Shown: one piece after another, positions 11,129 to 34,759 of the stretch
Position numbering within the stretch: position 1 is the first letter of the stretch
Layout of the letters: each line of letters begins with the position of its first letter
Source of the DNA: Candidatus Eiseniibacteriota bacterium
Lineage (GTDB): Bacteria; Eisenbacteria; RBG-16-71-46
DNA length: 64,000 nucleotides
Assembly (NCBI GenBank): GCA_025360715.1
Contig: JANYBS010000005.1
Span: forward strand, 5,571-69,570
Direction: 5' to 3'
The notes under the pieces: model-generated
Seen by the model: only the letters and a program-made list of their open reading frames with translations
The model's database searches: none
Told to the model about the DNA's origin: nothing
Position numbers and translations under genes: made by a program

Positions 11129-11140
11129 GTGTCATGACAC
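11129..11140. promoter_or_regulatory. Perfect 12-bp palindrome GTGTCATGACAC, candidate operator upstream of module 1
   Basis: Read directly from the sequence. It lies about 140 bp upstream of the TlpA-1 start, within the 277-bp intergenic region. Confidence 0.3.
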
Positions 11141-11279
11141 GCGATGTTGGGGCACCCGCGGGCCGGACGCATCTTCCCTGCTCACCCCACGAGGGCTGAA
11201 GCTCCCGCGTGCCTGCACGCGTCTTTAGGATGACACTCTGGACACGAAAGCCGCATCCCGCCGAAGACTCCGCCTCGCG

Positions 11280-11762
11280 TTGCCGCTGCTTCTGCTCGCC
11301 GGCCTGGCGGGGGCGTACTCCGCTAAGGCCGACTCCACCAAGCCTTCCACGCCGGCGCCGGCGTTCACGCTGGATGGCCGCTCGGGTCCGGTTTCGCTGG
11401 ATTCGCTGCGCGGCCGCGTCGTGTACGTGGATTTCTGGGCGTCTTGGTGTGATCCGTGCCGGCGTTCGTTCCCGTGGTTGCAATCGCTCCAAGCGAAGTA
11501 TGACTCGCTGGGACTCACCGTGGTCGGCGTGAATGTCGACAAGGACCACTCGCTCAGCGAAGCATTCCTGCGCGAGCACCCAGCCACATTCATGATCGCC
11601 TATGACGCCAAGGGCAAGGTCGCGGAGGCGTACCACGTGAAAGTCATGCCCTCGAGTGCCCTCATCGCGCGCGATGGCACGCTCGTGTCCCTGCATCCCG
11701 GCTTCGATCCCAAGCAGGCCGCCGATATCGAGAAGCGCATCCAGGAGGTATTGGCACGATGA
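11280..11762 (+). CDS. TlpA-like thiol:disulfide oxidoreductase (thioredoxin fold, WCDPC), copy 1
   Basis: 160 aa with a short signal-like N-terminus and the motif FWASWCDPC. The TlpA/ResA-like fold continues to ...VMPSSALIARDG. Its stop overlaps the DUF4266-1 start as ATGA. Confidence 0.8.
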   Translation: MPLLLLAGLAGAYSAKADSTKPSTPAPAFTLDGRSGPVSLDSLRGRVVYVDFWASWCDPCRRSFPWLQSLQAKYDSLGLTVVGVNVDKDHSLSEAFLREHPATFMIAYDAKGKVAEAYHVKVMPSSALIARDGTLVSLHPGFDPKQAADIEKRIQEVLAR

Positions 11763-11989
11763 AGACGCGACGCGCCGTAGGGGTGATCCTGCTCGCCGCT
11801 GCTGCCGCCAGCCTGAGCAGTTGTGCGGCGATGAGCGTCAAGCCGTGGGACCGCGATCTTCTCGCCCAGCCCAAGATGCGGTTCCAGCCGCTGCCCATGG
11901 TGCACGCGGTCGACAATCATATCTATTTCTCCAAAGAAGGCTCGATGGGCGGCGATGACGTGAGCGGCGGAGGCTGCGGATGCAACTGA
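11759..11989 (+). CDS. DUF4266 family small lipoprotein, copy 1
   Basis: 76 aa. The lipobox is LSSC and the characteristic C-terminus reads ...GGDDVSGGGCGCN. It lies between the thioredoxin and the DUF3570 genes, as is typical for this family. Confidence 0.7.
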   Translation: MKTRRAVGVILLAAAAASLSSCAAMSVKPWDRDLLAQPKMRFQPLPMVHAVDNHIYFSKEGSMGGDDVSGGGCGCN

Positions 11990-13269
11990 GCGAGCCGACC
12001 ACTGCGGCGGCAGCCGATACTCGCGTCGCGCGCCGCCTGCGCACCGCTGCCGCGGTGCTGTTCGCGAGCCTGCCGGCGATCGCGCGAGCGGCCGATAGCG
12101 GCACGGCGAGCGATGCACCCGCGAACCAGCTCGACTTCTCGGGCTTGCTCTACGGGGAAGCCTCGCGCGTCGCGGTGATCGAACCCATCGCCAAGCTCAC
12201 TCACCGCTTCGCCAACGGCCAGTCGCTCTCGGGCCAGCTCGGCATCGACGGCATCACGGGCGCATCGCCCACCGGTGCCCTGCCGTCGGGCAAGGTGACC
12301 ACGGTCACGAGCGCTTCGGGCAACGTGACCACGTCAGCGGCCGACCAGATCCCCACGACCAAGTTCAATGACATACGCGCCTCGTTCGATGCGGACTACG
12401 CCGTGCCCGTGGGCACGCTGTTCAAGTCCACACTGGGCGGGCACTTCTCGCGCGAGAAGGACTACCAATCCACGGGCGCCAACGCACAATTCGCGCTCGA
12501 CGTACTGCAACGCCTTTCGACCATCACCGTGGGCGGCGGCTTCAATCACGACACGAGCTTCCCCACGGGCGGCACGCACGCGCCGTTCACAGACGGCACC
12601 ACCGTTCTCACGACCGACCCGCAGGGCAAGGACGTGACCACATGGATGGTCGGCCTCTCGCGTGTCGTCACGCGCCGGCTGCTCGTGGGCGCCAACGTGT
12701 CGGGCACGAACGAGAAGGGCTACCTGACCGAGCCTTACAAGGTGCTCAGTGTGGTGGACACCGACGGCTACCCGGTGAGCACGCTCACCGAGAAGCGTCC
12801 CGACACCCGGACGCGCAAGAGCGTGCTGGGCAGCGCGGTCTACCATCTCGCCGACGACGTGTTATATCTGTCGTACCGTCGCTACTGGGACGACTGGGAC
12901 ATCCGCTCGCATACGATCGACGTGCGCTACCGTCACGAGCTTGGCGCCGACACATGGTGGGAGCCGCACGTGCGCTACTACGCTCAATCCGAAGCCCGGT
13001 TCCATACCTGGGGATTCGCGCAAGGGGCCGCGTTGCCGCAGTACGCGACGAGCGACTACCGCTTGGGCAAGCTCAACACGCTCACTCTGGGCCTCATGTA
13101 TGGCTTCCATCTCCTGGACTACCCGGGCACATTCACGATCCGCGGCGAGTACATGTCACAGTTCGGCGAGACCCATCCCGAAGGCGCCGTCGGTGTGCAG
13201 AAGAGCTACAGCCTCATGCCGGGACTCAGTATCGGCTCGCTCACCGCGGGCTACTCGATCGGCTGGTGA
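11980..13269 (+). CDS. DUF3570 family exported protein (predicted outer-membrane beta-barrel-like), copy 1
   Basis: 429 aa. The start codon lies inside the DUF4266 stop region (10-nt overlap). The signal region contains RRLRTAAAVLFASLPAIARA. The sequence is beta-rich and ends ...AGYSIGW. It contains DGITGAS and shares motifs with the ORF at 28496..29641. Confidence 0.7.
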   Translation: MQLSEPTTAAAADTRVARRLRTAAAVLFASLPAIARAADSGTASDAPANQLDFSGLLYGEASRVAVIEPIAKLTHRFANGQSLSGQLGIDGITGASPTGALPSGKVTTVTSASGNVTTSAADQIPTTKFNDIRASFDADYAVPVGTLFKSTLGGHFSREKDYQSTGANAQFALDVLQRLSTITVGGGFNHDTSFPTGGTHAPFTDGTTVLTTDPQGKDVTTWMVGLSRVVTRRLLVGANVSGTNEKGYLTEPYKVLSVVDTDGYPVSTLTEKRPDTRTRKSVLGSAVYHLADDVLYLSYRRYWDDWDIRSHTIDVRYRHELGADTWWEPHVRYYAQSEARFHTWGFAQGAALPQYATSDYRLGKLNTLTLGLMYGFHLLDYPGTFTIRGEYMSQFGETHPEGAVGVQKSYSLMPGLSIGSLTAGYSIGW

Positions 13270-13270
13270 G

Positions 13271-14170
13271 GTGACGCCCGAGGCGGCGCCGCGAGTGACG
13301 CGTGAAGGTGCGTTGCTCGTGGCGCGATTCATGGCCATGGCGAGTCCGTGCGAGGTGCTCCTGGAAACGCGCGATGATGCGGCCGGCGAGCGGGCATTGC
13401 TCGCCGCAGCACAGGAAGCCACGCGCATCGAGCACAAATACAGCCGCTATCGCAGCGACAGTGTCACGAACGCGGTCCAGCAGACTTCGGGCACCGATGT
13501 GGAAGTGGACGAGGAGACCTCGGGACTGCTCGACTTCGCCGCCCAGGCCCACGACGTTTCAGGCGGGCGCTTCGACCTCACGACCGGCGCGCTGCGCCGC
13601 TGTTGGACATTCGACGGTCGCCAGGTCACGCCTGACGTTGACGCCATCCGTGATGCACTCACACACGTCGGTTGGTCACGCGTGCAGTGGCGCCGCCCGC
13701 GACTGACACTGCCGGCGGGCATGGAACTCGACTTCGGCGGCATCGGCAAGGAGTACGCCGTGGACCGCGTTGCGGCGATCATGACCGCGCATGTCGCGGC
13801 GCCGTGCCTGGTGAACTTCGGAGGTGACCTGTTCGCTTCGGGGCCGCGCGGCGACGGTGTGCCGTGGAGCATTGGCATCGAGGATCCGGGCGCTCCCACG
13901 TGCATACTCACGCAGGAACTGGCGCTGACACGCGGCGGCGTCGCCACGAGCGGGGACGCGCGCCGCTTCGCGATGGTCGAAGGCCGGCGTCTGGGCCACG
14001 TCCTCGATCCGCGCACGGGCTGGCCGGTCACTGGCGCGCCGCGCTCGGTGACGGTCGTGGCGGCCACGTGCCTGGAGGCCGGAACGTTGGCCACGATCGC
14101 GCTGCTGCATGGCTCCGGCGCCCGCGAGTTCCTGCAGGCGCAGGCCGCGACCTTCACCTTGTTGGACTGA
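13271..14170 (+). CDS. apbE: FAD:protein FMN transferase (ApbE family), copy 1
   Basis: GTG at 13271, 1 nt after the DUF3570-1 stop. The product contains the ApbE core (R-F-MAMAS..., DFGGIGKEYAVDR, GGDLF, DPRTGWPV). About 300 aa, with no obvious signal peptide. Confidence 0.8.
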   Translation: MTPEAAPRVTREGALLVARFMAMASPCEVLLETRDDAAGERALLAAAQEATRIEHKYSRYRSDSVTNAVQQTSGTDVEVDEETSGLLDFAAQAHDVSGGRFDLTTGALRRCWTFDGRQVTPDVDAIRDALTHVGWSRVQWRRPRLTLPAGMELDFGGIGKEYAVDRVAAIMTAHVAAPCLVNFGGDLFASGPRGDGVPWSIGIEDPGAPTCILTQELALTRGGVATSGDARRFAMVEGRRLGHVLDPRTGWPVTGAPRSVTVVAATCLEAGTLATIALLHGSGAREFLQAQAATFTLLD

Positions 14171-14176
14171 CTCCTT

Positions 14177-15373
14177 CTACTGCGGCGGCGTGAAGACGAA
14201 CGGCGCCTGGAAGGCGGTCGCGCCGCCGCGGATGACCGGGAAGCGCCATTCGCGGATCTGCCCCAGCGCGCAATCCGCCAGACGGCTCGAGCCGAGCGTG
14301 TTGACCACCACATGCGCTTCGTCGACTTCGCCGCTCGCGGCGACCACCAGCGAGATCACCAGTTTGCCGCGAAGCGAAGGTTCGCGCTTGAGTTCGTTGC
14401 CGTAGCAGTACTGGATACCGGCGGAATACTTCTGGATCACGGCCAGCAACGATGCGTTGCTGCGGTAGACGCCGGGAGGCGCCACACCGCCGCTGCCACC
14501 GCCGTCACCGGGGCCGACGCCCGAGCCGTGGCCGGTGCCGACGCCGCCACCGCTGCCACCGCCAGAGCCGCCACCCGATCCACTACCGATGCCGTCACCC
14601 ACGCCGTCGCCGATCCCACCGCCCAAACCGCCGCCCGAACCGGCGCTGTGTCCGCCGCGGCCCGGATGCAGGTCCGCAAGCGCCACGAGCGTGCCCACCA
14701 CGACACTGTTGCCAAGGTCCGCGCCGGAGCCGCCACCGACTCGGCCCACGCCGCCGCCACCGAGCGCGTCCTCGCCGCGCGCGACGCGCAGCGAGCGGCC
14801 ACCGCCAGCGCGCAGGGGAGCGGCGCCCTCCGAACTGCTCGCGCTGCCGAGCGAAGCCGTCAGGCCATCGAGCGCGCTACTCACCGCGCGGCCGCCTCGT
14901 GAGCCACTGCCACCACCCAGCGCGTCAGCCAGTTCGGCCTGCGCGCGCGCGCGGCCACTGCCGCCATCGCCGCCCGCGGCATTCAGGTGCACGGGGCCGC
15001 TAGTTCCCGGGCCCGGTGCCAGATGTTCGGGCGCGATGACGCGCGCCACCTTCGAGAGACCGTCACCGCCGCCGCCACCACCGCCGCCGCCGGGCGTGTG
15101 TGTGGGGTCTGCCGCACCAGGTGCCACGACCGGAACGCTCACCGCATGCGTCTGCACGGCGAATTGCGGCGGCAACACCAAGCGCGCGTAGCGCGTCTCC
15201 GGCGCTGCGGCCACGGGCGCAGGCGCAAGGACGGTCGCCGGCATCAATCGTACGCCGACCATGAACACGGCGCCTGCCAGCGCCGTGCCCATGAGGCAGC
15301 GCCGGAACAGGGCGTCTCGCGGATCGAACATCGGGCGCTGGTACGCCGGTGCGGTCATGATATTCACGCGCAT
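14177..15373 (-). CDS. TonB-family / AgmX-PglI-like energy-transducer protein with long Gly-rich linker
   Basis: 398 aa. An N-terminal TM anchor (LMGTALAGAVFMVGV) is followed by Pro-rich and poly-Gly/Ser low-complexity segments. The C-terminal domain (YRSNASLLAVIQKYSAGIQYCYGNELKREPSLRGKLVISLVVAASGEV...) is TonB-C-like. It is the last gene of the ExbB-ExbD-ExbD operon. Confidence 0.65.
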   Translation of the reverse strand: MRVNIMTAPAYQRPMFDPRDALFRRCLMGTALAGAVFMVGVRLMPATVLAPAPVAAAPETRYARLVLPPQFAVQTHAVSVPVVAPGAADPTHTPGGGGGGGGGDGLSKVARVIAPEHLAPGPGTSGPVHLNAAGGDGGSGRARAQAELADALGGGSGSRGGRAVSSALDGLTASLGSASSSEGAAPLRAGGGRSLRVARGEDALGGGGVGRVGGGSGADLGNSVVVGTLVALADLHPGRGGHSAGSGGGLGGGIGDGVGDGIGSGSGGGSGGGSGGGVGTGHGSGVGPGDGGGSGGVAPPGVYRSNASLLAVIQKYSAGIQYCYGNELKREPSLRGKLVISLVVAASGEVDEAHVVVNTLGSSRLADCALGQIREWRFPVIRGGATAFQAPFVFTPPQ

Positions 15374-15377
15374 GGGT

Positions 15378-15860
15378 TCAGGCCTTCTTGAGTACGGCCA
15401 GCGCGATGTCGGGATAGCCGCTCTGATTCACGGTGTACATGACCTTCTGCAGTAAGCGGAACTCGATGTCCTGGTCGCCCTGGATCGTCACGAGGTGCTT
15501 ACGCATCGCACTCGTGTCGCGTGAAGCCGGAGCCTCGCGGCGCAGACGATCCGCCAACGGCGCGATCAACATCTGGTCGTCTGCGAGCGCCGCGGAAACG
15601 GTCGTGATGCGGTCCCCGCCGATCAGGATCGTGCCCTTGTCGATGGCGATCACGGTCGAGTTCTGCATCGCGGCCTCAGCTGTGGACTTGGGCAACGATA
15701 CGCTGGGCGGCGGCGTCGTCGCATCGCCACCTGTCACGAAACTCTTGAGCACGAAGAACAACAGCGTCGTGAGCACGTCCATCATCGACGTGAGGGAGAT
15801 GCCGGTCTCGGCGTGGCGCTGCCCCGCCCAGCGCTTGCGGCGGCCCCTTGTGCGGCGCAT
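15378..15860 (-). CDS. ExbD/TolR family biopolymer transport protein (paralog 1)
   Basis: 160 aa from ATG 15860 (MRRTRGRRKRWAGQ...ISLTSMMDVLTTLLFFVL). It has the single-TM ExbD/TolR topology and a periplasmic domain. Confidence 0.8.
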   Translation of the reverse strand: MRRTRGRRKRWAGQRHAETGISLTSMMDVLTTLLFFVLKSFVTGGDATTPPPSVSLPKSTAEAAMQNSTVIAIDKGTILIGGDRITTVSAALADDQMLIAPLADRLRREAPASRDTSAMRKHLVTIQGDQDIEFRLLQKVMYTVNQSGYPDIALAVLKKA

Positions 15861-15861
15861 G

Positions 15862-16341
15862 TCAGGCTCCCTTCGTGGTCGCGCCTTCGAGCGCGGTGTC
15901 GGTGAGCCCGGCCGCACGGGCCAGGTCCATGAGCGTGACGATCTCCTGATAGCGCGTGCCCGGTTCCGCGAGGATGCGGATCGCCTTGGTGCCCGGATGC
16001 GCCGCCGTGACACTGGCAAGTGCACGCGTGAGCGCCGCGGCCGTGGGCGCCGTCGGCGCGCCGTTCTCGTTCTGCCGGGTGACCGCGATCGCCGCCACAT
16101 CGCGGCCCTCGATCACATACGCCGAACCCTGCACACGCAGCACCAGGTCCAGCCCGGGAACACTCGCCACAGCGGAGTGAGCAGCGGGCGGCGGCGTCAT
16201 CTCGATCGCGCGGATCTCCATGAAGACCGCCGATAAGAGCAGCATCGGGATCAGCACGATGATCACGTTCATGAGCGGCCGCAACTCGAGCTGTGCCTCG
16301 GTGGATTGCTGCAACGCGCCCTTGCGGCGCATCCGCGACAT
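15862..16341 (-). CDS. ExbD/TolR family biopolymer transport protein (paralog 2)
   Basis: 159 aa (MSRMRRKGALQQSTEAQLELRPLMNVIIVLIPMLLL...). It is a second ExbD paralog, 1 nt upstream of paralog 1. Confidence 0.8.
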   Translation of the reverse strand: MSRMRRKGALQQSTEAQLELRPLMNVIIVLIPMLLLSAVFMEIRAIEMTPPPAAHSAVASVPGLDLVLRVQGSAYVIEGRDVAAIAVTRQNENGAPTAPTAAALTRALASVTAAHPGTKAIRILAEPGTRYQEIVTLMDLARAAGLTDTALEGATTKGA

Positions 16342-16344
16342 GAC

Positions 16345-17067
16345 TTATTGCCCCGCCGCGATCGCCGGACGTGCCTGCACCGGTGCGGCCACCGGACGAG
16401 CCTGCGGCATCGCCACGACGCCCGCCGGGCGGTGCGCCTCGCGCGACTTCGTCAAAGCATGCGTCAGCCGGATGCTGGCTTCGTCGACCTGCTCGGCGAT
16501 GCCCTCGATCAGGCCCAGCAGATAGCCGTGGATCACCAGCGTCGGGATCGCGATCACGAGGCCGAATGCCGTGGCATTGAGTGCGGTCGAGATGCCGGCT
16601 GCCAGCAAGGAGCTGCGCTGGGAAGGATCGGCCGCGCCGACAGCGGTGAACGCCTGGATGAGTCCCGCGATGGTGCCCAGCAGTCCCAGAAGCGTGCAGA
16701 CGTTCGCCAGCACGTTCAGGTACGCCAACCGGCGCGAGAGCGGAGGCATCGCCAGCGTCGCCGCGTCGTCCGCCGCCATCTGCAAGTGGTTCGTGTCGGT
16801 ACCGTTCACGTCCAGGATCGCCTGCGCGATCATGGCGACCGGCGCGGTGCTCATGTGGCTCACCTGACGCGCACCCTGCACGTCTCCGGAGCCGATTCGG
16901 CGCGTGACGTCTTCGATCATCTTGCGGCTATCGAGCCGGGCAGCCTTGGAGATCACGAGGAAGCGCTCGACCACGATCGCGGCGATGACGATCGCCGTGG
17001 CGAGGATGAGATACATGAATACGCCGCCCTGCTTGAAGAAAGCGGCGATGGTCGAGAACTCGTTCAT
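16345..17067 (-). CDS. MotA/TolQ/ExbB proton-channel protein
   Basis: 240 aa (MNEFSTIAAFFKQGGVFMYLIL...) with three TM segments and the conserved ExbB/TolQ C-terminal helices. Confidence 0.85.
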   Translation of the reverse strand: MNEFSTIAAFFKQGGVFMYLILATAIVIAAIVVERFLVISKAARLDSRKMIEDVTRRIGSGDVQGARQVSHMSTAPVAMIAQAILDVNGTDTNHLQMAADDAATLAMPPLSRRLAYLNVLANVCTLLGLLGTIAGLIQAFTAVGAADPSQRSSLLAAGISTALNATAFGLVIAIPTLVIHGYLLGLIEGIAEQVDEASIRLTHALTKSREAHRPAGVVAMPQARPVAAPVQARPAIAAGQ

Positions 17068-17405
17068 CGTCGTAGCTCCTTGTCGTGCGCCAGCCGCACG
17101 CGGTTCACGAGGACCAGTGCCGGGAGCCGGGTGCTATCGGCGAGCTCCTGCGCGGTCTTCAGGTAGCGCCGATCCTGGAAGTCCAGGAACCGCCGCTGGT
17201 CCCGCGCGGTGATGAACAACACCTGCGGGGTGGGGATCTCACCTTCGATATGGATGTCCGACAGTTGCCGAGGAGCGTGTGACGCCGGCGCCGCTACAGC
17301 AGGGGCGGCCACCGATGCGCGGCGGGCGCGATGCGCGCGGGCGCTCCAAGTCGTCGCGGGCAGCAGCAGGGCCACCATCGTCACGGTGAGCACTGCGCGC
17401 TTCAC
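17064..17405 (-). CDS. Small exported hypothetical protein (signal peptide), co-operonic with exbB
   Basis: 113 aa with a signal peptide MKRAVLTVTMVALLLPATTWSARA. Its stop overlaps the exbB start (ATGA). No recognisable domain. Confidence 0.4.
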   Translation of the reverse strand: MKRAVLTVTMVALLLPATTWSARAHRARRASVAAPAVAAPASHAPRQLSDIHIEGEIPTPQVLFITARDQRRFLDFQDRRYLKTAQELADSTRLPALVLVNRVRLAHDKELRR

Positions 17406-18394
17406 CGTGCACCCGGCTTGTCGTCATCCGCGTGCGCCAGCGGCGTCGTGAACGCGCCGGCGAGCGAGTCGGGATCCTCGCTTGCACGTGCACGGTATGC
17501 GGCGAACCAGCGCGCGGCAGCCGCGTCGTCGAGCAGGTAGAAGCCGCTCAGGATCGTCATATTGTAGTAGGGACCGGGCAACGCCGCGTCGCGGGCGATC
17601 GCCGCCTCGAAGGCCTTCTGGGCGCCGGTCACATCGCCGGCGCGCAGCCGCAGGATACCCACGTTGTTGAGCGTCGCCGCGTTGTGCCCGGCCTGCTTCG
17701 CCGAACTCGCGAGCAGCTCTGCCGGTGACGGTGAGGCATCGCGCGCGCCCAGGTACACCCGCACCGGCGCCGCTGCTGCGTCATCGCCGGCCGCCGCGAG
17801 TGCGGCACGCGCCTCGCGCGGATGGCCCAATGCGTCGTGGTGCAACGCCAGCGCCGCGAGCAACCCTGCGCGCTCGTGCGGCGAGAAGGCCTCCGGGTGC
17901 TCGTTCACCACCGCCAGGACCGGTAGCGCCTCCGCGGATCGCCCTTCGGCAAGCAGCCAGCTCGAGAGCAGCGCCAGTGAGGGCGCGTGTTGCGGATCAC
18001 GCGTGATCGCCTCACGCACGGCGCTCTCGGCGGAGCCAAGGGAATCGGCCGCGCGCAGCGCGAGCGCCGCCCGGTAAGCCGGCGCGGGATCTTGAGGATG
18101 CGCCAGCATCGCGGCGCGTACCCGGGCCAGCGGAGACTCGGCAGGCGTGTCGCCGGCTGGTGCCACCGCGGCTGATGCCGGGACCGCCGCCTTCGCGTTG
18201 CGGCCGGAGCGCACCACGCCCGCGTGCGACCGCACGTCGGCAACAGCTCCGTGGCGGGCGAACAGGCGCATCCCACAGCCGCCCGACAGCACGGCCGACG
18301 CCAAGGTTGCACCTAGCAATGCACGCGATGCGAAACGCAGTGCGGGCCGGGAAGCCCGCATGAAGGAGCAAGCGGGCAGCAGGTGCTGGGTCAT
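17402..18394 (-). CDS. TPR-repeat lipoprotein
   Basis: Lipobox ...AVLSGGC near the N-terminus, followed by Ala-rich TPR-like helical repeats. Its start overlaps the stop of the giant upstream ORF (ATGA). Confidence 0.5.
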   Translation of the reverse strand: MTQHLLPACSFMRASRPALRFASRALLGATLASAVLSGGCGMRLFARHGAVADVRSHAGVVRSGRNAKAAVPASAAVAPAGDTPAESPLARVRAAMLAHPQDPAPAYRAALALRAADSLGSAESAVREAITRDPQHAPSLALLSSWLLAEGRSAEALPVLAVVNEHPEAFSPHERAGLLAALALHHDALGHPREARAALAAAGDDAAAAPVRVYLGARDASPSPAELLASSAKQAGHNAATLNNVGILRLRAGDVTGAQKAFEAAIARDAALPGPYYNMTILSGFYLLDDAAAARWFAAYRARASEDPDSLAGAFTTPLAHADDDKPGAR

Positions 18395-23184: not shown

Positions 23185-23186
23185 CG

Positions 23187-24044: not shown

Positions 24045-24046
24045 GA

Positions 24047-24625: not shown

Positions 24626-24633
24626 GGCAGCTC

Positions 24634-25509: not shown

Positions 25510-25549
25510 CCATCTCGAGCTCGCATCTCCCGCTGTGCCGATCACCGCA

Positions 25550-26188: not shown

Positions 26189-26826
26189 CAGCGAGATTCC
26201 TGTGCGGCCATCGCCGGTGCGGGCACGGGGTTCCTGAACTCCATGCCCACGGGCAGGATCTGCATCTCGTTCGAGCGGAAGGGCGTCACGACGATCGTAT
26301 CGCCCTGGATGCGCTCGATCTTCTGACCCGAGCCCATGTAGCAAAGCAGGAACACGCCGCCATGCCCCGCGCCTGTGGAGTCGAGCACGGTGGGGATGTG
26401 GCCCTGAAAGGTGAATGTTAGCGGCTGGATCAGATGGTCCCAGCCCGTGACGGGGATCAACGCCCGGCCCAGCGTCGTGGAGTGGGCGAGCAGTGAATCG
26501 ATGTCGGTCGCCATGCGCAGGCGTTGAGCGTCGGGCGCCACCTCCACCGTGCCGGGGTCGATCGTGGCGCTCGCGCGCAGTTCCGCGACGGCGTATCCAG
26601 TGACGATGTGCCGGTAGGTGATGGTGGCCTGCACCGAGACCGATTCCTGCGCGCCCAACGTGACCGTCTCGAAAGGTGTGAGGTTCGAGTGCAGCAGGTC
26701 GACGCGCGTCCAACGATCCTCGAGCTTGGGCGCATCGAAGCACCCGCTGAGCAGCGCGGACGTGGCCATGCCCATGACGGCAAACCTGACCATGGCGGCC
26801 GGCCGGCGCAGGTGTGCGGCGTTCAT
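26188..26826 (-). CDS. Lipoprotein, hypothetical
   Basis: ATG at 26826, with a lipobox LLSGC after MNAAHLRRPAAMVRFAVMGMATSA. About 212 aa. Confidence 0.45.
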   Translation of the reverse strand: MNAAHLRRPAAMVRFAVMGMATSALLSGCFDAPKLEDRWTRVDLLHSNLTPFETVTLGAQESVSVQATITYRHIVTGYAVAELRASATIDPGTVEVAPDAQRLRMATDIDSLLAHSTTLGRALIPVTGWDHLIQPLTFTFQGHIPTVLDSTGAGHGGVFLLCYMGSGQKIERIQGDTIVVTPFRSNEMQILPVGMEFRNPVPAPAMAAQESR

Positions 26827-28466: not shown

Positions 28467-28495
28467 GGGAGACTCCTTTCCGCGACCTGCGAGCT

Positions 28496-29641
28496 TCACT
28501 GGAAGCGAAGCTCGAGTCCGGTCTCGAGGATGTTCGCGGAGTAGTTGTTGCTGTTGAAATAGCGCTCGTAGTGCAGCCAGAGCGCAGGCGCGCCCAGATG
28601 CGGGTGCGCGGCGGCGAAGCCGTCCATGTCCAGGTGGAGCGAGACCCCGAAGAGATGCGAGGCCAGGTCATTCATGCGGTAGTCGGCCGTGCGATATCCG
28701 CCGATGCCGTTCACGCTGGCGTATTCGTGCGCATAGAAGTCCGCCTTGCCCTGCGTGTACCAGCGGTACTCCCAACTCGTGCTGAGCGCGTGCGTCACGT
28801 ACTGGCTCAGATCCGCGCTCAACTCGTGCGAAGTGATGCCCCAGTCATCGTTGTAGAGCCGATAGTCGGCTTTGATGCTCGAGCGGTTCGCCATGTAGTG
28901 GCTGAGCTTGACGAACGCATCGCGGCGCTCGCGGGTGGAGGGATGACGCTCGGGGACGCGCGTGCCGCCGGCGTAGACGTTGCGGTAGATGTTGTGTTGC
29001 AGGCCTTCCACGTGGAACAACTCGACGCCGCCGCGCACCAGCGTGCTCGGGCTGAGCACCTGTGTGGCGACCACGCTGCCATGGAGCGTGTTCTTGTGCT
29101 GCCGGATGGAAGCCGAGCGCTCGTCGGCGAGTGGCGTGATCGCGTCCCAGCCGTAGCTGGTCGACACGGCCACGTTGAACGTCTGGTCGCGGAGATCCCG
29201 GTCGGCGTGCGCGCCGAACTGCTGGCCCAGATAGTCGACCTCGCGCGACACGTAGTATTCGGCGCCCACGTGCGACCGCGCGATCTCGGCGGTCAGCTCG
29301 TTGCGCGTCTTCACATAGTCTTCGAAGGCGTTGCCTTCGATCGGCCGGCTCGCAGTCGTGATCGCGTCGATCGCGTCCTGGCTGCCGGCTGGCGCCGAGA
29401 TCGCGGGAATCGTGACCTGCTCGTTGTTCCAATGCAGCGACAGCGATTCCGCGCCATGGCCGAGCGGAGCCGCATAGTCGCCGCTCATGGCACGCACGCG
29501 CACGCCGCCCGAGTCCGTGAACAACCGGAACATGGAATACAGCGAAGCTTCCTCGGCCACCGTGGCCGAACGCGCACGCGTGGCGCAGAGCGCCGAAAGC
29601 GCGAGCGTGAACGCCGCCCCATGAGTCCGCTTCAGTTGCAC
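28496..29641 (-). CDS. DUF3570 family exported protein, copy 2
   Basis: GTG at 29641 overlaps the DUF4266-2 stop by 10 nt, the same geometry as copy 1. The signal peptide is (M)QLKRTHGAAFTLALSALCATRA. It shares motifs with copy 1: IDAITTAS vs IDGITGAS, and DYRLYNDDWGITSHELSADL vs YRRYWDDWDIRSHTIDVRY. Confidence 0.65.
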   Translation of the reverse strand: MQLKRTHGAAFTLALSALCATRARSATVAEEASLYSMFRLFTDSGGVRVRAMSGDYAAPLGHGAESLSLHWNNEQVTIPAISAPAGSQDAIDAITTASRPIEGNAFEDYVKTRNELTAEIARSHVGAEYYVSREVDYLGQQFGAHADRDLRDQTFNVAVSTSYGWDAITPLADERSASIRQHKNTLHGSVVATQVLSPSTLVRGGVELFHVEGLQHNIYRNVYAGGTRVPERHPSTRERRDAFVKLSHYMANRSSIKADYRLYNDDWGITSHELSADLSQYVTHALSTSWEYRWYTQGKADFYAHEYASVNGIGGYRTADYRMNDLASHLFGVSLHLDMDGFAAAHPHLGAPALWLHYERYFNSNNYSANILETGLELRFQ

Positions 29642-29880
29642 GCGCAGCCTCCGCCGGCGCCGCCGGTGCCGCCCGTGGAGCCTTCTCGGGCCTCGAATGC
29701 TTTCATCTGTCGAGCTTTGAGCTTGGCCTGTGCATCCAGCGAGACGATACGGTCGACCAGATGCTCGCGTTGATACACCGCCACCGGCGCAGCACACCCG
29801 CCTGCGCCCAACGCGGCTGCGAGCGCACTCATCGCGACCGCCACGACCGCCACCTTCTTGCCAAGCTGATTGCGGTTCAT
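29632..29880 (-). CDS. DUF4266 family small lipoprotein, copy 2
   Basis: 82 aa with lipobox LGAGGC and C-terminus ...GSTGGTGGAGGGCACN, compared with GGGCGCN in copy 1. The TlpA-2 stop overlaps its ATG as ATGA. Confidence 0.7.
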   Translation of the reverse strand: MNRNQLGKKVAVVAVAMSALAAALGAGGCAAPVAVYQREHLVDRIVSLDAQAKLKARQMKAFEAREGSTGGTGGAGGGCACN

Positions 29881-30452
29881 CGCGACCCTCCCTCGTTACT
29901 GCTCGCGGCCACCGCATGCCCGGCAAGCAGGCGCATGGCCTGATCGCGAAGTTCGGCGACCGCTGCGTCATCACTGCGGTTCGTCACGTACACCACACGG
30001 CCGTCACGATCGAGCACGACCGCCACCGGCACATTCGTGAGTGCCAGCTGCTTGGCCAGCCCTTCGGGGCCGTCCGCGAACACGCTCAGATGCAGCGCGT
30101 GGTCGCGGATGAAGCGCTGGATGTTGCCGTGGTCCGTATCCAGCGAGACGGCGAGCACGCGGCCACCCGCAGCCTGGAGCGCGTGGTCGAGCGCATCCAG
30201 CCGCGGCAGCTCGCGCCGGCACGGCGCACACCACGTCGCCCACAGGTCCACGACGACCACCTGGCCCTTGAGATCCGCCAGCGTCAGCGCGCCACCATCC
30301 AGACGCTGGAACGTGTGGGCGGCCAGCGCCGTCGCGGCGGCCTCGCGGCTCACGCCGAGTCCGGCGCCCGCCGCGGCCGCTTGCGTTGATCGCGGCGTAG
30401 CCGATGCCAGCGCAGCCGCCAGCAGAAGTGCCGACACTCGGTACGCTTGCAT
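29877..30452 (-). CDS. TlpA-like thiol:disulfide oxidoreductase (WCAPC), copy 2
   Basis: ATG at 30452 (MQAYRVSALLLAAALASATPRSTQAAAAG). Motif VVDLWATWCAPC. 191 aa, starting 8 nt after the stop of the cytochrome gene. Confidence 0.8.
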   Translation of the reverse strand: MQAYRVSALLLAAALASATPRSTQAAAAGAGLGVSREAAATALAAHTFQRLDGGALTLADLKGQVVVVDLWATWCAPCRRELPRLDALDHALQAAGGRVLAVSLDTDHGNIQRFIRDHALHLSVFADGPEGLAKQLALTNVPVAVVLDRDGRVVYVTNRSDDAAVAELRDQAMRLLAGHAVAASSNEGGSR

Positions 30453-30460
30453 GCGCGCGC

Positions 30461-32431
30461 TCACTTGTACTGGGCGCCCAGCAGCACCCAGAGGTTGAAG
30501 AGACGCTTCTCGTCGGCGGTGAGCGAATCGCTCGTGGCCGGGTGTGCGAGTTGACCCGCATGCGAGCCCAGCGCCATGACGTAGTCGACCAGTGGCGAGC
30601 GGCGCGGGAAGGCGGGATCGACTTCCTGGTGCGCGAGCTTCATCGACTCGCCCGACAGGTTGATGTACGCGCGCGGGAAGATGCCGCGCATGCGGCTGGT
30701 ATCCGCTACCGCGGTCAGGTCCAAGCCGCCGGCCGCCGGCGTGCTGCCGTTCGGCGTATGGCACGACATGCACTTGGCGGTCACGATCGGACCGATGTCG
30801 TTCTGGTAGTTGATGACGCGAAAACTCGCGCGCGGCTTGTTCAAGTCGAAGGCCGGTTGGTGCGCGGCCATCGGATCCGGATTCGTCGACACCGGCCCGC
30901 CCACGCGGCGATCCTCGTGGCAGCCGACGCAGTTCTTGAACTCCTCGCCCGGCCGCACATAGAGATGGGTGCGCTTCACCACGATGCCGCGGCCATGCTC
31001 GTCGAGCGTTGCGAAGCTGATCGGTGTATTCGCGGGGATCTTGATCCGGAACGAACCGTCGGGATAGACCGGCGCCATGCCGATCAGCGCGCGTTTCTCG
31101 AATTCGTTCGCCGAGAAGTCATTCATCTCACCGACCACCGTGGGCCGCGCGGCGATGACCGCGATGCTGTCGATCGGCTGCTGGCCGCGGATCGGGACTT
31201 CCTGGCCGTCGCTGGTGCTGCGATTGAACACGTCCTGCGCCAGGAACACGCCATAGTCGACCGAGTGGTCCACGATCGAGGCGATGACCGGCGGCTTCGC
31301 ATGCGGCGCCAGGAGCTGCGCATCGAGTTCCTGGGTGCCCGCGTCGTTGTAGAGGAACGTCAGGTCGTGGATCGCGAAGGTGGCCGGGCTGGCCACGGTG
31401 CCGGCGCCCGTCTGGTCCAGCGTGAAGGTATAGAGCGCGTAGTCCGTCTGGTCCTTGGTCGCGGCCGGCAGCGAGTACGAGACCACGTAACGATTGCCAC
31501 CGATGGAGCGCGCGTACTTGAACGCACCGTGCGGCCACGGCATGCCGTCCTCGTTCACCTGCGGGGTCAAGACGTCCCAGTGCAGGTCTTGCGGGCCCAG
31601 TTCCGGATCCGCCGGGCCCTGTTCGGGCTTGAGCACGGCGATAGGGCCCTCGTCGCCATTGACCATGGTGGAGCCGATGGCGATGAGGCGGCCTTCGGGC
31701 GTGACCGTGGGGTGGAAGAAGTTCATCCCATGCGGACCGAACTTGTGGAACGTGCCGGTGCCGTCCGGATTGGTCACGAAGAGCGGGAATCGGTTCATCG
31801 TGCCGAAATGCTCCCAGCGCGTGTACACGATGCGGCCGTCAGGCAACAGCTCGGGGTCGAAGTCGTCCGATTGATTGAAGCTGACTCGCTCGATGTTGCT
31901 GCCGTCATAGTCGCACGTATGCAGCGTGGCGCTCGGGGCGTGGTTGTATTCGTCCATCTCGCCGGCGCGCGTACTGGTGAACATCACGCGGCCATCGGGC
32001 AGGTAGAGCGGGTCGAAGTCGTCGCCGCCGCCACTTGTGACCTGGCGCATGTTCGTGCCATCGGCATCGATCTCGTAGATGTTGCGCTGCGAGCCGCCGG
32101 ACGGGCGCATCGAGAAGAGGATCTTCTTGCCATCGAACGAGACCGCCGGATCCGAGATGCTGGCTCCCGTGAAGCTCGTGATCGGCGTCACCAAGCCATC
32201 CGGGGAGATCGGCGAGAGCTTGTACAGGTTGCTGCTGGCGTTCGTACGATTGAGCGTTTCAGAGGAAGTGGCCTTCACGAATACGAGCGCTTGCGTCGTA
32301 CTCACCTGCTGGATCAGGTCGCTTGGCGCGCTCTCGCGACAACCGGTCAACGCGCCGGGCAGCAGCAGTACCGCGAGCCAGAGGGCAAGCGGCTTGAGGC
32401 GTAGGTGTTTCTCGAGGGGGTGTGCGTGCAT
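30461..32431 (-). CDS. TolB/PD40-like beta-propeller fused to diheme c-type cytochrome (hydrazine-synthase-alpha-like architecture) lipoprotein
   Basis: ATG at 32431 gives a lipoprotein signal MHAHPLEKHLRLKPLALWLAVLLLPGALTGC. PD40-like blades include FDGKKILFSMRPSGGSQRNIYEIDADG, LPDGRVMFTS and LPDGRIVYTR. The C-terminal region has two CXXCH heme-binding motifs (NCVGCHEDR and KCMSCHTPNG). 656 aa. Confidence 0.65.
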   Translation of the reverse strand: MHAHPLEKHLRLKPLALWLAVLLLPGALTGCRESAPSDLIQQVSTTQALVFVKATSSETLNRTNASSNLYKLSPISPDGLVTPITSFTGASISDPAVSFDGKKILFSMRPSGGSQRNIYEIDADGTNMRQVTSGGGDDFDPLYLPDGRVMFTSTRAGEMDEYNHAPSATLHTCDYDGSNIERVSFNQSDDFDPELLPDGRIVYTRWEHFGTMNRFPLFVTNPDGTGTFHKFGPHGMNFFHPTVTPEGRLIAIGSTMVNGDEGPIAVLKPEQGPADPELGPQDLHWDVLTPQVNEDGMPWPHGAFKYARSIGGNRYVVSYSLPAATKDQTDYALYTFTLDQTGAGTVASPATFAIHDLTFLYNDAGTQELDAQLLAPHAKPPVIASIVDHSVDYGVFLAQDVFNRSTSDGQEVPIRGQQPIDSIAVIAARPTVVGEMNDFSANEFEKRALIGMAPVYPDGSFRIKIPANTPISFATLDEHGRGIVVKRTHLYVRPGEEFKNCVGCHEDRRVGGPVSTNPDPMAAHQPAFDLNKPRASFRVINYQNDIGPIVTAKCMSCHTPNGSTPAAGGLDLTAVADTSRMRGIFPRAYINLSGESMKLAHQEVDPAFPRRSPLVDYVMALGSHAGQLAHPATSDSLTADEKRLFNLWVLLGAQYK

Positions 32432-32466
32432 GGTGGTGATCCGAACCTCCCGCGACGGTCCGCCGT

Positions 32467-33102
32467 TCATGGCTGGACCGTGCGATAGAACGAGAGCCCG
32501 ATCGTTCCCTGCGAATACGGGTAGGTCACGACACCTTCGTGGTCGCGCTGCTGGCCGAACACGATCGCGTGACGCAGGTCGGCGCGAAGCGCCAGGTCAT
32601 TGCGGATGAAGCATTCGAGCCCGCCACCGATGGAAAGGCTGTTCTTCGTCACAGCGGTCGCGTCCACGGCGCGACCTGGGAAAACGACGATCATCCCGTA
32701 ACCCGCCGTGAGGTAGGGCTGGAGCCGCCCCGACACCGGGCGACGGACGATCGCGCTCAATGTGTGCAACACGGCATGCACGGAAGGCGATGGGTTGTGT
32801 GCCAGCGAGGCTTCGTAGCCGAGCCAATCGCTGGGGTGGTACGCCGCGCGGATCACGAAGAGCGGATCGCTCCCGAACCAGCCGTAACCCGGACTGAACG
32901 CCAGCCGGTTCTGGTAGGGCCGCACGCCTGGCGCCAGCTGGTAGGGGTGCTCGGCCAGCGCCGGATTGAGCGCTTCAAGCACGCGCTTGGGAGCTGCAGG
33001 CGGCGTGAACGAGACGGCCGACGTATCGGCGTCCTGCGCCGCCGCCATGCGGGCGCCAGTGAGCGCTAACCCTAAGGTCATCGCGATGAACAGCGCGCGC
33101 AT
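32467..33102 (-). CDS. Outer-membrane beta-barrel (OmpW/OmpA-like) protein
   Basis: ATG at 33102 (MRALFIAMTLGLALTGARMAAAQD). About 210 aa of alternating beta-strand pattern, ending ...IGLSFYRTVQP. Confidence 0.45.
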   Translation of the reverse strand: MRALFIAMTLGLALTGARMAAAQDADTSAVSFTPPAAPKRVLEALNPALAEHPYQLAPGVRPYQNRLAFSPGYGWFGSDPLFVIRAAYHPSDWLGYEASLAHNPSPSVHAVLHTLSAIVRRPVSGRLQPYLTAGYGMIVVFPGRAVDATAVTKNSLSIGGGLECFIRNDLALRADLRHAIVFGQQRDHEGVVTYPYSQGTIGLSFYRTVQP

Positions 33103-33554
33103 CAGTGCAATACCCCGGCCTGGATCCATCCACGGATCGCGACATAGTCGCTGTCCGCGCGTGAGGCGAAAGTCTTGTACGGATGCGGGTGCCCACCCGC
33201 CGCAAGGTCGAGCGGCTGCTGGAGCACCGCGCTGCTGTCGGCCGCGACGGTGGAGGTCTGCAGCGAGACCTGCGCGAAGTCGTACGCGCTGTCTTTCGCG
33301 TCGGGAGGTGAGAGCTGCAGTGTGCCGCGGATGCCACCCCCGTGACAGTCACCCGTCGCGTCACAGCCCATGCGTTGCAGGCGCGGCTCGACGTCGCTCT
33401 GGAAGCGCGCGTAGTCGAGCGTCAATGTGTGCCCGCCCGCGGGCGGCGCCGGCGGCGCGGTCGGCGAGACACAGCTTTGCGCGAGGGCGGACAACGCGAG
33501 CGACGTGAGCAGGACCGCGGCGCTGCGCGTGCGATCCTGCGGTCGTTCGAACAT
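33102..33554 (-). CDS. Small exported hypothetical protein
   Basis: 150 aa with signal peptide ...AAVLLTSLALSALAQSC. Its stop overlaps the downstream start (ATGA). Contains CDATGDCHGG, which is not a CXXCH motif. Confidence 0.4.
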   Translation of the reverse strand: MFERPQDRTRSAAVLLTSLALSALAQSCVSPTAPPAPPAGGHTLTLDYARFQSDVEPRLQRMGCDATGDCHGGGIRGTLQLSPPDAKDSAYDFAQVSLQTSTVAADSSAVLQQPLDLAAGGHPHPYKTFASRADSDYVAIRGWIQAGVLH

Positions 33555-33736
33555 CGCGTGCCTCCGAGGGTTGACTCACGTGTGGGGCCCGAGTGGCCTT
33601 TCCTGCACCTGCGGATCGGCAGCGCGCTCCGGGGACTCGAGGCGTGGTTCCGCATCCCTTCCGAGGGATGGCGCGGGCCGCTTACGCAAGCCACGGACCA
33701 TGAGCAGCCAGGGGACTCCGCCCCGGGTGAGAACGC

Positions 33737-34759
33737 TCAGTCCACCCAGTCGATCTCGAACAGGTCCAGCGCCTGCGGCACGAGCGCGAAGCGGTCTCGA
33801 AGCGATGCGCTGACCCACACTTTGTCTGGTCCATCGGCGCGCGGTTCCACGCAGACGGAAGAGACTCCCTGCACGCTGCGGGCCAAGCGTTTAGCGTCGC
33901 GCGGGCCGAGCACGAAGTAGGCCGTGCTCCAGCCCTCGGCTTCGAGGGCGGAAGGGGCGACGACCGTGACTGAGGAGAACCCTTCCGCCGGCTTGCCGGT
34001 ACGCGGATCAAGCAGGTGCCCGCAGCGACGACCCTCGTGCATGACGAACTGCTCGTAACTGGCGGACGTGGAGATGCCATGGCCGGAGGGGATCTGAAGC
34101 CGTGCAAAATGCGTCATGCGGTCGTGCGGATCGCGTACGCCGATACGCCAGGCAGACGCATCGGCCGGCGTCCCGATCGCGCGCATGTTCCCGGTCAGGT
34201 CCACCAGCGCATCACGAACGCCCCGTGCGGCGAGCGTCTCAGCGGCGCGATCGACCGCGAAGCCCTTGGCGATACCGCCCAGGTCGATGCGGGTGTCCGG
34301 ATGCGTGAAAGCAATTGTGCCCGCTGCGCGATCCAGCGCGATGCGCTCGCTGCCGACGCGCGCGAATGCCGCTGCAGCTTCGGCCGCCGAGGGTACGCGC
34401 CGCGGCCCGCCCAAGAATCCCCAGGCGCGCACGAGCGGCTCGAGCGTGATGTCGAAGGCATGCTCGCTGAGCGCCCATACTCGCAGAGCTTCCGCGACCA
34501 CGGCCGCCACATCCGCGCTGATCGCTGCCGGGCGCGTGCCGGCCTCGCGATTGATCCGGGCGACTTCGCTCGTCTCGGTCCAATTGCTCATCGTACGGTC
34601 CACATCACGGAAGACACCGAATACCGCCTCGGCGTGGATGCTCGCAGCCGCGGCGTCGTCCGTGACCAGCGTCGCGCGCCCATACGTTCCCATCGTACGT
34701 GTCTCGAATGCCACGCTGGCACGCGGGCCGGGCCGCCGCGACAGCGATGTGTGCGGCAT
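33737..34759 (-). CDS. apbE: FAD:protein FMN transferase (ApbE family), copy 2
   Basis: ATG at 34759 (MPHTSLSRRPGPRASVAFETRTMGTYGRATL...). ApbE motifs R-x-x-MGT, DLGGIAKGFAVDR and DPRTGKPA are present. 340 aa, with no obvious signal peptide. It is divergent from the outer-membrane receptor gene. Confidence 0.75.
   Translation of the reverse strand: MPHTSLSRRPGPRASVAFETRTMGTYGRATLVTDDAAAASIHAEAVFGVFRDVDRTMSNWTETSEVARINREAGTRPAAISADVAAVVAEALRVWALSEHAFDITLEPLVRAWGFLGGPRRVPSAAEAAAAFARVGSERIALDRAAGTIAFTHPDTRIDLGGIAKGFAVDRAAETLAARGVRDALVDLTGNMRAIGTPADASAWRIGVRDPHDRMTHFARLQIPSGHGISTSASYEQFVMHEGRRCGHLLDPRTGKPAEGFSSVTVVAPSALEAEGWSTAYFVLGPRDAKRLARSVQGVSSVCVEPRADGPDKVWVSASLRDRFALVPQALDLFEIDWVD

Follow-up and report, generated by a model that had tools for sequence, protein, structure and literature searches.

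A variant DUF3570 flavinylation module in a predicted, phylum-wide operon of Candidatus Eisenbacteria that also encodes an HzsA-like cytochrome and a Glt-like motor

This report concerns a 64-kb stretch of DNA (G+C ~67%), referred to here as the window, from the genome of an uncultured member of Candidatus Eisenbacteria. The window contains two copies of a four-gene module that encodes a TlpA-like thioredoxin, a DUF4266 lipoprotein, a DUF3570 protein and the flavin transferase ApbE. A preliminary description of the sequence pictured the two modules as facing each other across a 19-kb gene string. We find instead that copy 2 and the string are a single set of 20 co-directional genes, which covers ~20.6 kb of the minus strand (34759 to 14177), and that copy 1, which is on the plus strand, is an independent cassette of a known type. 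The combination of a DUF3570 variant module, an HzsA-like cytochrome and a motor like the Glt core in one operon is undescribed. The duplication that was noticed first is of little consequence; the real finding is the operon, which appears to extend throughout the phylum, together with the predicted barrel nature of DUF3570. Our overall interpretation, which we consider reasonably likely, is that copy 1 is a member of the known cassette and that the conserved operon encodes a relay from a thiol to a CxC tail to a flavin on an outer-membrane flavo-barrel.

The evidence for the operon comes from its gene order. Reading frames were picked by third-position G+C and open reading frame (ORF) length, and the window proteins were assigned to families by Pfam (gathering cut-offs) and NCBIfam model scores. 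The gene junctions in the window range from -4 to +40 nt, several of them ATGA overlaps, and the sole exception is a gap of 182 nt after the ApbE gene of copy 2 (ApbE2). The first half of the conserved order is ApbE, a lipoprotein that we call p150, a small outer-membrane protein, the HzsA-like protein, TlpA, DUF4266, DUF3570, an NHL/FlgD_ig protein and two proteins that match no family. The second half consists of an SH3 plus outer-membrane protein, two more unmatched proteins, a giant tetratricopeptide repeat (TPR) protein, a TPR lipoprotein, a small protein, ExbB, two ExbD proteins and a TonB-like protein. Conservation was followed in three contigs found by looking up copy-2 orthologs, in 185,579 species genomes scanned with an alignment of the giant TPR protein and in metagenomes scanned with an alignment of p150. 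The genome scan gave 36 loci, nearly all of them in Eisenbacteria metagenome-assembled genomes, and the metagenome scan gave 164 relatives, with 80 loci kept. The colinear order recurs in the three contigs, the 36 genome loci and the metagenome loci, and ApbE2 is immediately upstream of p150 in ~20 of the 24 loci that hold upstream sequence. Because the order recurs across loci, copy 2 is best regarded as genes 5-7 of one operon and not as a free module. We predict from these patterns that the 20 genes form one operon that is conserved across Candidatus Eisenbacteria. The position of a module copy beside a Ton-like motor, which was thought to be unusual, is for copy 2 the rule in this phylum.

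The module itself is not new, because Méheust et al. (2021, eLife 10:e66878; PMC8238504) reported it from over 500 genomes, and its flavinylation has been shown experimentally. Their catalog has 227 clusters of ApbE, DUF3570, a thioredoxin-like protein and DUF4266 with DsbD and 316 without it, and the DUF3570 protein of Chlorobium luteolum received covalent flavin from the cognate ApbE at two [S/T]GA[S/T] motifs (PMC8238504). The preliminary description was correct that surveys link DUF3570 and DUF4266 to ApbE, but the link to flavinylation is more than the mere prediction that it was taken to be. Méheust et al. suggested a DsbD-fed hybrid thioredoxin/flavin relay, perhaps linked to iron (PMC8238504). 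A 2023 preprint mentions the DUF4266/DUF3570/TlpA neighborhood in passing. The 2021 paper mentions neither an HzsA-like nor a Glt association, and Eisenbacteria and PF18582 each occur 0 times in those of its supplements that are searchable as text.

Copy 1 begins with a TlpA-like thioredoxin of 160 amino acids (aa) that has a signal peptide and the motif WCDPC (11280-11762, plus strand, as are all four genes; Pfam Redoxin 3.2e-23, AhpC-TSA 4e-21 and Thioredoxin_8). Its gene is overlapped by 4 nt by the gene for the DUF4266 lipoprotein (11759-11989, 76 aa; lipobox LSSC, tail GGGCGCN), which matches PF14086 at 1.3e-19 and 71.3 bits (cut-off 27, profile 1-50/50). The DUF3570 protein (11980-13269, 429 aa) belongs to the canonical long class, is a predicted outer-membrane beta-barrel with W as its last residue, and matches PF12094 at 1.6e-85 and 287.9 bits (cut-off 25, profile 5-426/427). 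The ApbE flavin transferase (ApbE1; 13271-14170, 299 aa, no signal peptide) matches PF02424 at 2.1e-64 and 218.1 bits (cut-off 25.6), with the domain starting at ~aa 26. Orthologs of this DUF3570 protein (~421 aa, 50-57% identity) are present in Eisenbacteria, Myxococcaceae and Thermoanaerobaculia, and the four genes stand as a unit amid unrelated genes at three loci (L046, L047 and L048). Copy 1 is an ordinary, self-contained member of the known flavinylation cassette and is mobile in its genomic context.

The genes of copy 2, all on the minus strand, encode a TlpA-like thioredoxin with the motif WCAPC (gene 5, 29877-30452, 191 aa; Pfam AhpC-TSA 9e-20, Redoxin 4e-17), a DUF4266 lipoprotein with the tail GGGCACN (gene 6, 29632-29880, 82 aa; PF14086 4.3e-12, 47.2 bits, cut-off 27), a short-class DUF3570 protein (gene 7, 28496-29641, 381 aa; Pfam 1e-31, 110.6 bits, cut-off 25) and ApbE2 (gene 1, 33737-34759, 340 aa; PF02424 1e-78, 264.9 bits, cut-off 25.6). 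The consensus of the copy-2 DUF4266 family ends in ...AREGSTGGxGGaGGGCAC. All eight ORFs of the two copies therefore score far above the Pfam gathering cut-offs, and the family assignments of the preliminary description hold, as do the GGGC(G/A)CN tails, the W-C-x-P-C motifs and the components of the extracytosolic flavin/heme/thiol redox set that it proposed.

Its statement that the copies are clearly paralogous holds only in part. The families are shared, but the similarity between the copies is low, with identities from 20 to 36%; the TlpA pair is 33% identical (E = 5e-24), the ApbE pair 36% (E = 3e-25) and the DUF3570 pair 30% over 105 aa (E = 3e-10), the last a significant result in the pairwise alignment that had been proposed. 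The proposed alignment of the DUF4266 pair, however, is confined to the C-terminal tail and is not significant (E = 6.7), and homology of this pair is accepted because both proteins match the same Pfam model. The copy-2 DUF3570 protein was also searched against 1.84 billion cluster representatives, which gave 1339 relatives, 150 of them listed (50%-cluster representatives). Copy 1 scores 33 bits against copy 2, and all of the 150 listed relatives score higher. The copy-2 orthologs (~380 aa, 55-63% identity) that carry names are all from Candidatus Eisenbacteria. Because every listed relative outscores copy 1, and because each copy has its own ortholog family, a recent local duplication is ruled out. 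The two copies are instead distant members of different subfamilies, each separately conserved, and their DUF3570 proteins are among the most distant in the family.

The adjacency of the two copies was compared with the situation in other genomes. In the window, copy 1 converges on the 3' end of the operon with the stop codons 6 bp apart, and this is the only genome examined with such an abutment; at locus L045, a copy-1 cassette is divergent to the operon and ~600 bp off the ApbE2 end. Copy 1 is missing in all ~20 loci whose sequence extends 5 kb or more downstream of the GltG-like gene (the TonB-like gene 20) and in all ~9 metagenome loci whose sequence extends 3 kb or more upstream of ApbE2, and this excludes a conserved facing arrangement. 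A scan of positions 10800-15500 for promoters and terminators gave no signal above shuffled expectation. One could argue that both modules cooperate as one duplicated redox system that flanks and serves the Ton-like motor, since they lie within 21 kb of each other, copy 1 also touches the operon at L045 and two juxtapositions of differing geometry exceed the naive expectation of ~0.5% per genome. However, the window was chosen for the juxtaposition of copy 1 and the operon, so its own case is no independent evidence of adjacency and only L045 counts; copy 1 is absent from the downstream- and upstream-holding loci just mentioned; three copy-1 cassettes are in unrelated contexts; and the geometry is convergent at the 3' end here versus divergent at the 5' end in L045. 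We therefore regard such a duplicated system as very unlikely. Because the selection of the window leaves a single independent juxtaposition, we treat the adjacency as probably incidental, and the head-to-tail contact between copy 1 and the operon seen here is in all likelihood incidental too.

Turning to the DUF3570 protein, the AlphaFold2 model of copy 2, made from 131 sequences, has 16 beta-strands, with a pLDDT (predicted local distance difference test) score of 90 and a predicted template modeling (pTM) score of 0.84. F or Y is the last residue of 71% of the 105 full-length DUF3570 representatives, and such an ending is the usual outer-membrane beta-signal. With high confidence, the model predicts that DUF3570 is a 16-stranded integral outer-membrane beta-barrel. 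The acceptor motif sits on a 30-residue loop that joins strands 3 and 4 (loop pLDDT 67-82). This flavin mononucleotide (FMN) loop would be on the long-loop side, together with L4, L5 and L7, which is the extracellular/lumen side if the N-terminus is periplasmic. Taken together, the barrel model and the loop serine would locate a covalently bound flavin at the outer membrane or within it, suggesting an electron route that is free of cytochromes. We found no paper that links ApbE flavinylation with an outer-membrane barrel, and the word barrel occurs 0 times in the text of PMC8238504.

The flavinylation motif of copy 1 is DGITGAS (aa 90-96, 12247-12267, plus strand), which matches D-x-x-[S/T]-G-A-[S/T], with Ser96 as the predicted FMN site. 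Within the family, D-x-I-T-G-A-S-P is conserved to at least 90%. Copy 1 has one strict [S/T]GA[S/T] (TGAS) and a second, weaker site, TSAS at aa 110-113, as do most of its close relatives. Copy 2 has the flavinylation-like motif DAITTAS (aa 92-98, 29348-29368, minus strand), with Ser98 as the predicted FMN site. Either DAITTAS or DAVTTAS (114 and 11 occurrences, respectively) is present in all 120 listed members of the copy-2 family, and the longer form DAITTASRPI is near-invariant. T95 and S98 are invariant in a joint alignment of both DUF3570 families. The fifth motif position in 105 diverse representatives is S in 37, G in 32, A in 18 and T in 3; this position is widely variable across DUF3570, which excludes TTAS as a lineage-specific oddity of copy 2. 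A change of G to A in the ApbE motif D-x-x-[S/T]-G-A-[S/T] leaves ~50% flavinylation (PMC12052999). From its motif, copy 2 is plausibly flavinylated at one site.

These motifs bear on the possibility that DUF3570 is a polymer channel of the BcsC/PelB/PgaA type that serves a Glt/Nfs-like machine, with TlpA and DUF4266 engaged only in cytochrome maturation or thiol housekeeping and thus without any electron path at the outer membrane. TlpA-family proteins do serve cytochrome maturation in other bacteria, which is in keeping with this idea. So is the ability of Agl-Nfs to move spore-coat polysaccharide in Myxococcus (PMC3858216). However, DUF3570 is a proven ApbE substrate (PMC8238504) and the acceptor Ser is invariant across both families; furthermore, the quartet is kept without cytochrome or polysaccharide genes at L046-L048, and the operon is without a glycosyltransferase or a polymerase. 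Consequently, an export channel seems most improbable to us.

The fourth gene of the operon (30461-32470, minus strand) encodes an HzsA-like lipoprotein of 669 aa (Pfam HZS_alpha 4e-18, PD40), which is the beta-propeller diheme cytochrome that had been recognized as an extra gene of copy 2. In this protein, a PD40 propeller is followed by an HZS_alpha middle domain and then, at the C-terminus, by a cytochrome c domain, and its gene is the best conserved of the operon, with 70-79% identity among orthologs. Heme motif 1, CVGCH (C514-H518, 30917-30931, minus strand), is at the end of the middle domain and aligns with CSGCH of HzsA, whereas heme motif 2, CMSCH (C567-H571, 30758-30772, minus strand), falls in a region with cytochrome c and Paired_CXXCH matches; both motifs are invariant in the ortholog alignment. 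A profile of 49 orthologs has its best PDB match in 5c2v_A, with E=5.7e-25 in five colinear segments that span the propeller, the CxxCH-bearing middle domain and the C-terminal heme domain. In a Foldseek search with the AlphaFold2 model (pLDDT 75), 5c2v_A was the top match by far (E=7e-28, template modeling score TMq 0.67), followed by TolB at 1e-9. No CCP/MauG-type diheme protein, as expected for the HZS beta/gamma partners, was detected among the operon genes in the Pfam and NCBIfam scans. The protein is a full-length structural homolog of the hydrazine synthase alpha subunit and not an HzsA ortholog. A 2025 study reported HzsA homologs outside of anammox bacteria, none of them with an assigned function, and did not mention Eisenbacteria (PMC12758564). 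In the long-read-derived contig of L045 (2815-4798), the HzsA-like gene is called as two ORFs of 424 and 238 aa, which reflects either a frameshift/pseudogene or an assembly error.

With these components, the following relay can be envisioned. ApbE attaches FMN covalently to Ser/Thr of DUF3570, a step demonstrated by others. The membrane-anchored TlpA, with its CxxC, would hand reducing equivalents to the Gly-rich CxC tail of the DUF4266 lipoprotein, and this flexible tail would reach the FMN on or in the barrel and deliver or accept electrons. The barrel would then serve as a redox site, based on flavin, that is situated at or across the outer membrane, and in the operon the relay would be wired to the HzsA-like diheme cytochrome as its periplasmic partner. 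The relay could also run in the oxidizing direction, from substrate thiols through TlpA, DUF4266 and the FMN of DUF3570 to the HzsA-like cytochrome or O2, and would then make disulfides or oxidize a thiol compound at the outer membrane. The model here would be the pathway in which Mia40 (CPC) passes electrons to Erv1 (flavin) and then to cytochrome c; the operon's components, ordered as CxxC, CxC, flavin and cytochrome c, parallel it. The cytochrome adjoins copy 2 only, and no DsbD/CcdA was found in the window or adjoining the copy-1 cassettes that were examined, both of which would agree with oxidation. Against it, thioredoxins of the TlpA/ResA/CcmG type usually act as reductants, the reductant importer DsbD is part of 227 of the 543 published clusters (PMC8238504) and the canonical cassette operates without a cytochrome. 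On balance, we find an oxidizing relay unlikely and prefer the relay that starts from reduced TlpA.

The downstream half of the operon resembles, as a parts list, the Agl/Glt (Nfs) core complex. It contains the giant exported TPR protein of ~1598 aa (gene 14, 18391-23187; NCBIfam YbgF/CpoB-type TPR 8e-24 and a weak BamD match, both under cut-off), a TPR lipoprotein of 330 aa with the lipobox SGGC (gene 15, 17402-18394; Pfam TPR_12/TPR_2) and a small exported protein of 113 aa (gene 16, p113, 17064-17405), which matches no family and for which a consensus was made from 27 orthologs. The Ton-like genes that had been noted at this locus are present at 14177-17067: an ExbB/TolQ/AglR-type proton channel (gene 17, 16345-17067; MotA_ExbB 8.8e-24), two ExbD/TolR-type proteins (gene 18, 15862-16341, ExbD 1.2e-12; gene 19, 15378-15860, ExbD 7.8e-13) and a GltG/GltJ-like, TonB-type protein with an N-terminal transmembrane helix, a Pro/Gly-rich linker and an AgmX/PglI C-terminal domain (gene 20, 14177-15373). 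All seven genes are on the minus strand. Gene 20 matches NF033768 (myxo_SS_tail, the AgmX/PglI C-terminal domain) at 7e-23 and 80.5 bits versus a cut-off of 40. It also has partial matches to GltG (1e-14, 54 of 650 bits) and GltJ (3e-10, 40 of 450 bits), which fall below the full-length cut-offs, and a Pfam TonB_C match at 2e-4; it has no FHA domain, and a PDB sequence search with it gave no meaningful match. The core complex consists of gltD, E, G and C plus aglR, Q and S, and it has been without a known function outside of gliding bacteria since 2011 (Luciano et al. 2011; Cambillau & Mignot 2025; PMC3169522, PMC11761067).

A Glt-like trans-envelope scaffold driven by the proton motive force might position or energize the redox assembly. 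The most ambitious version of this scheme, in which the whole operon encodes a new kind of trans-envelope redox machine with a flavin-bearing 16-stranded barrel as a counterpart, free of cytochromes, to the porin-cytochrome conduits, a TlpA to CxC relay, an HzsA-like diheme enzyme and mechanical or energetic coupling to an Agl/Glt-type motor driven by the proton motive force, is in our opinion doubtful; if it were true, it would be the first function for the Glt core complex outside gliding bacteria. The motor genes could also point to reductive acquisition of iron or another metal, in which Fe(III) or a chelate would be reduced or passed by the flavo-barrel and uptake would draw its energy from the ExbBD/TonB-like motor. 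A TonB-type energizer is indeed within the same operon, 25 DUF3570 clusters contain a VIT1 iron transporter, from which iron assimilation was suggested (PMC8238504), and genes for FeoB (50674-52917) and a DtxR-type repressor (53152-53757) are on the minus strand 16-19 kb from the operon. The FeoB gene, however, is beyond the conserved block in an unrelated stretch, the TonB-like protein is of the GltG/GltJ type and not a classical TonB, and a plug-domain TonB-dependent receptor, siderophore genes and an iron transporter are all missing from the conserved operon. We consider this iron-uptake role rather improbable.

Several points weigh against the thiol to CxC to flavin relay and the operon that we favor. 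Attachment of flavin to DUF3570 by ApbE is the only step related to the electron path that is demonstrated in the family, and co-transcription of the 20 genes is deduced from gene packing. The membrane side of the FMN loop is deduced by strand parity only, in a loop that was modeled with lower confidence (pLDDT 67-82). Copy 2 has no strict [S/T]GA[S/T], and the same is true of 112 of the 120 listed family members. The giant TPR protein exceeds GltD in length and is likened to it by size and position. ExbB and ExbD are within the cluster at 19 loci and missing from it at 7 of the 26 loci (L013, L023, L028, L032, L033, L042 and L044), where the order is giant TPR, TPR, small protein and GltG-like protein. 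These seven loci show that linkage of the motor genes is not obligatory; in some members of the phylum they are either unlinked or absent. As for the supply of reductant, no DsbD/CcdA was present among the ORFs scanned across the 64-kb window or adjoining any of the five copy-1 cassettes examined (window, L045-L048). Finally, ApbE1, its orthologs and the ApbE2 of the window are signal-less despite having an exported barrel as their predicted substrate.

The signal peptides of the ApbE proteins were assessed by eye. ApbE1 and four orthologs (276-307 aa) begin ~25 residues ahead of the catalytic domain without a hydrophobic leader. ApbE2 orthologs (L004, L008 and L045) have a signal peptide or a lipobox, but the window ApbE2 has no signal peptide in any upstream reading frame, and this is specific to this genome; a signal peptide concealed in another frame or behind a frameshift was looked for and not found. 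A programmed frameshift that would join the copy-1 DUF3570 to the signal-less ApbE1 was also considered and rejected, as the frame offset between the two genes varies across L045-L048. Signal-less cytosolic ApbEs are known (PMC12052999), and the C. luteolum DUF3570 protein was flavinylated in the cytoplasm of Escherichia coli and recovered from the pellet (PMC8238504). It is a possibility that the signal-less ApbEs modify the unfolded DUF3570 precursor before its export, or that they are exported by another route.

The remaining genes of the operon are all on the minus strand. Gene 2 (33102-33554) is the p150 lipoprotein of 150 aa, which has no Pfam/NCBIfam match and keeps its position between ApbE2 and the small outer-membrane protein. 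Its invariant stretch GCDAxGDCHGGGIRGxLxLSP looks like a cytochrome-c-type helix, with CX5CH instead of CxxCH, and may be an atypical heme-binding site. Gene 3 (32467-33129) encodes a small outer-membrane beta-barrel protein of 220 aa (Pfam OMP_b-brl 6e-06, slightly under cut-off) that is conserved in position in all loci. Gene 8 (26823-28466) encodes an NHL beta-propeller with a C-terminal FlgD_ig/CHU_C domain of the type IX secretion system (T9SS) type, likely a surface protein (NHL 5e-12, FlgD_ig 1.5e-13, CHU_C weak). Its stop codon has an ATGA overlap with gene 9 (26188-26826), which encodes the p247/p212 lipoprotein (lipobox LSGC). Gene 10 (25550-26188) encodes an exported protein of ~212 aa; genes 9 and 10 are without Pfam matches and are conserved in position. 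Gene 11 (24634-25509) combines SH3 with an outer-membrane beta-barrel of the OMP_myx_plus type (SH3_3, OMP_b-brl; TIGR04565 68.5 bits, cut-off 60). Gene 12 (24047-24625) encodes an exported protein of 192 aa (p192) that is strongly conserved in 29 orthologs, and gene 13 (23187-24044) an exported protein of ~285 aa that is conserved in position; neither matches a family. In total, six conserved proteins (p113, p192, p286, p247, p224 and p150) have no Pfam or NCBIfam match. The core motif of p113 is IEGEIPxPQVLFITxRxQRRF, and those of p192 are RWGYLF...TMLLMRGAF...LFVVVDAxxGKVRRTWRG.

A few observations concern the surroundings of the operon. A polytopic membrane protein of 455-482 aa without a Pfam match overlaps the start of ApbE2 at L004 (3477-4844) and L045 (7326-8774); it is not in the window, whose corresponding position is occupied by a divergent CarboxypepD_reg/OMP_b-brl_3 gene (34951-37923). 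Farther away on the minus strand (56351-63181) are genes for a protein of 1212 aa without a Pfam match and for two proteins of ~530 aa with a C-terminal FlgD_ig. The tails of the last two are like the T9SS-like tail of the NHL protein of the operon, and these proteins are probably further surface or secreted cargo. Subunits of a molybdenum hydroxylase of the xanthine dehydrogenase/CO dehydrogenase family (MoCoBD, FAD_binding_5) are encoded at 830-4505 on the plus strand and are unrelated to the operon.

Among flavinylation systems to which no physiological role has yet been assigned, the four-gene module ranks with the largest. It now appears that an entire uncultured phylum of soils and sediments has a variant of the DUF3570 module hard-wired into an operon with an HzsA-like cytochrome. 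The HzsA-like family has no known function outside anammox. The operon thus offers a defined set of genes, open to testing, in which each of three orphan systems might help to explain the others.

It is useful to compare these genes with systems that have been described. Like the clusters of Méheust et al., the modules here have these four Pfam families, tightly arranged in an identical order, with copy 1 a plain member, a small secreted DUF4266 lipoprotein with a C-terminal CxC and a DUF3570 protein with an ApbE-type acceptor motif; neither window copy has DsbD nearby, as is the case for 316 of the 543 published clusters. They differ in that ApbE1 is without a signal peptide and that copy 2 is short (~380 aa), with a single site, DAITTAS, versus two [S/T]GA[S/T] motifs. 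In addition, ApbE2 is four genes from the copy-2 DUF3570 in the same operon, and copy 2 belongs to an operon of 20 genes that also encodes an HzsA-like cytochrome and a Glt-like motor. The HzsA-like protein has the same three-domain architecture as HzsA (5C2V chain A) over its whole length, but the identity is 18%, the score with the NF052339 equivalog model is 86.6 bits versus a cut-off of 800, the residues after the first CxxCH are E-D-R-R instead of Y-G-S-Y and the host is no anammox bacterium.

The operon shares with the Agl-Glt/Nfs core a single ExbB/TolQ-like gene, a pair of ExbD/TolR-like genes, a TonB-like protein whose C-terminal domain is of the AgmX/PglI (GltG/GltJ) type, an exported TPR protein of very large size along with a second TPR lipoprotein and a small protein, and small outer-membrane barrels of the OMP_myx_plus type. 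There is also a parallel in Myxococcus for the unlinked motor genes of 7/26 loci, where aglRQS is unlinked from glt. However, the operon is in another phylum, no homologs of GltI, GltK and CglB were detected in it and it is joined to a redox module, which is seen in no described Glt/Nfs cluster. The DUF3570 barrel differs from the export barrels BcsC, PelB and PgaA in that it is 7-9% identical to them and has no fused periplasmic TPR domain, polysaccharide synthesis genes are not present at this locus and DUF3570 is an ApbE substrate. In the MtrCAB porin-cytochrome conduits, a decaheme protein is threaded through a 26-strand barrel, whereas here there is no multiheme cytochrome and the flavin would be carried on a loop of DUF3570 itself. 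The likeness to MtrCAB is thus one of concept only, that of an outer-membrane barrel with covalent redox cofactors that moves electrons.

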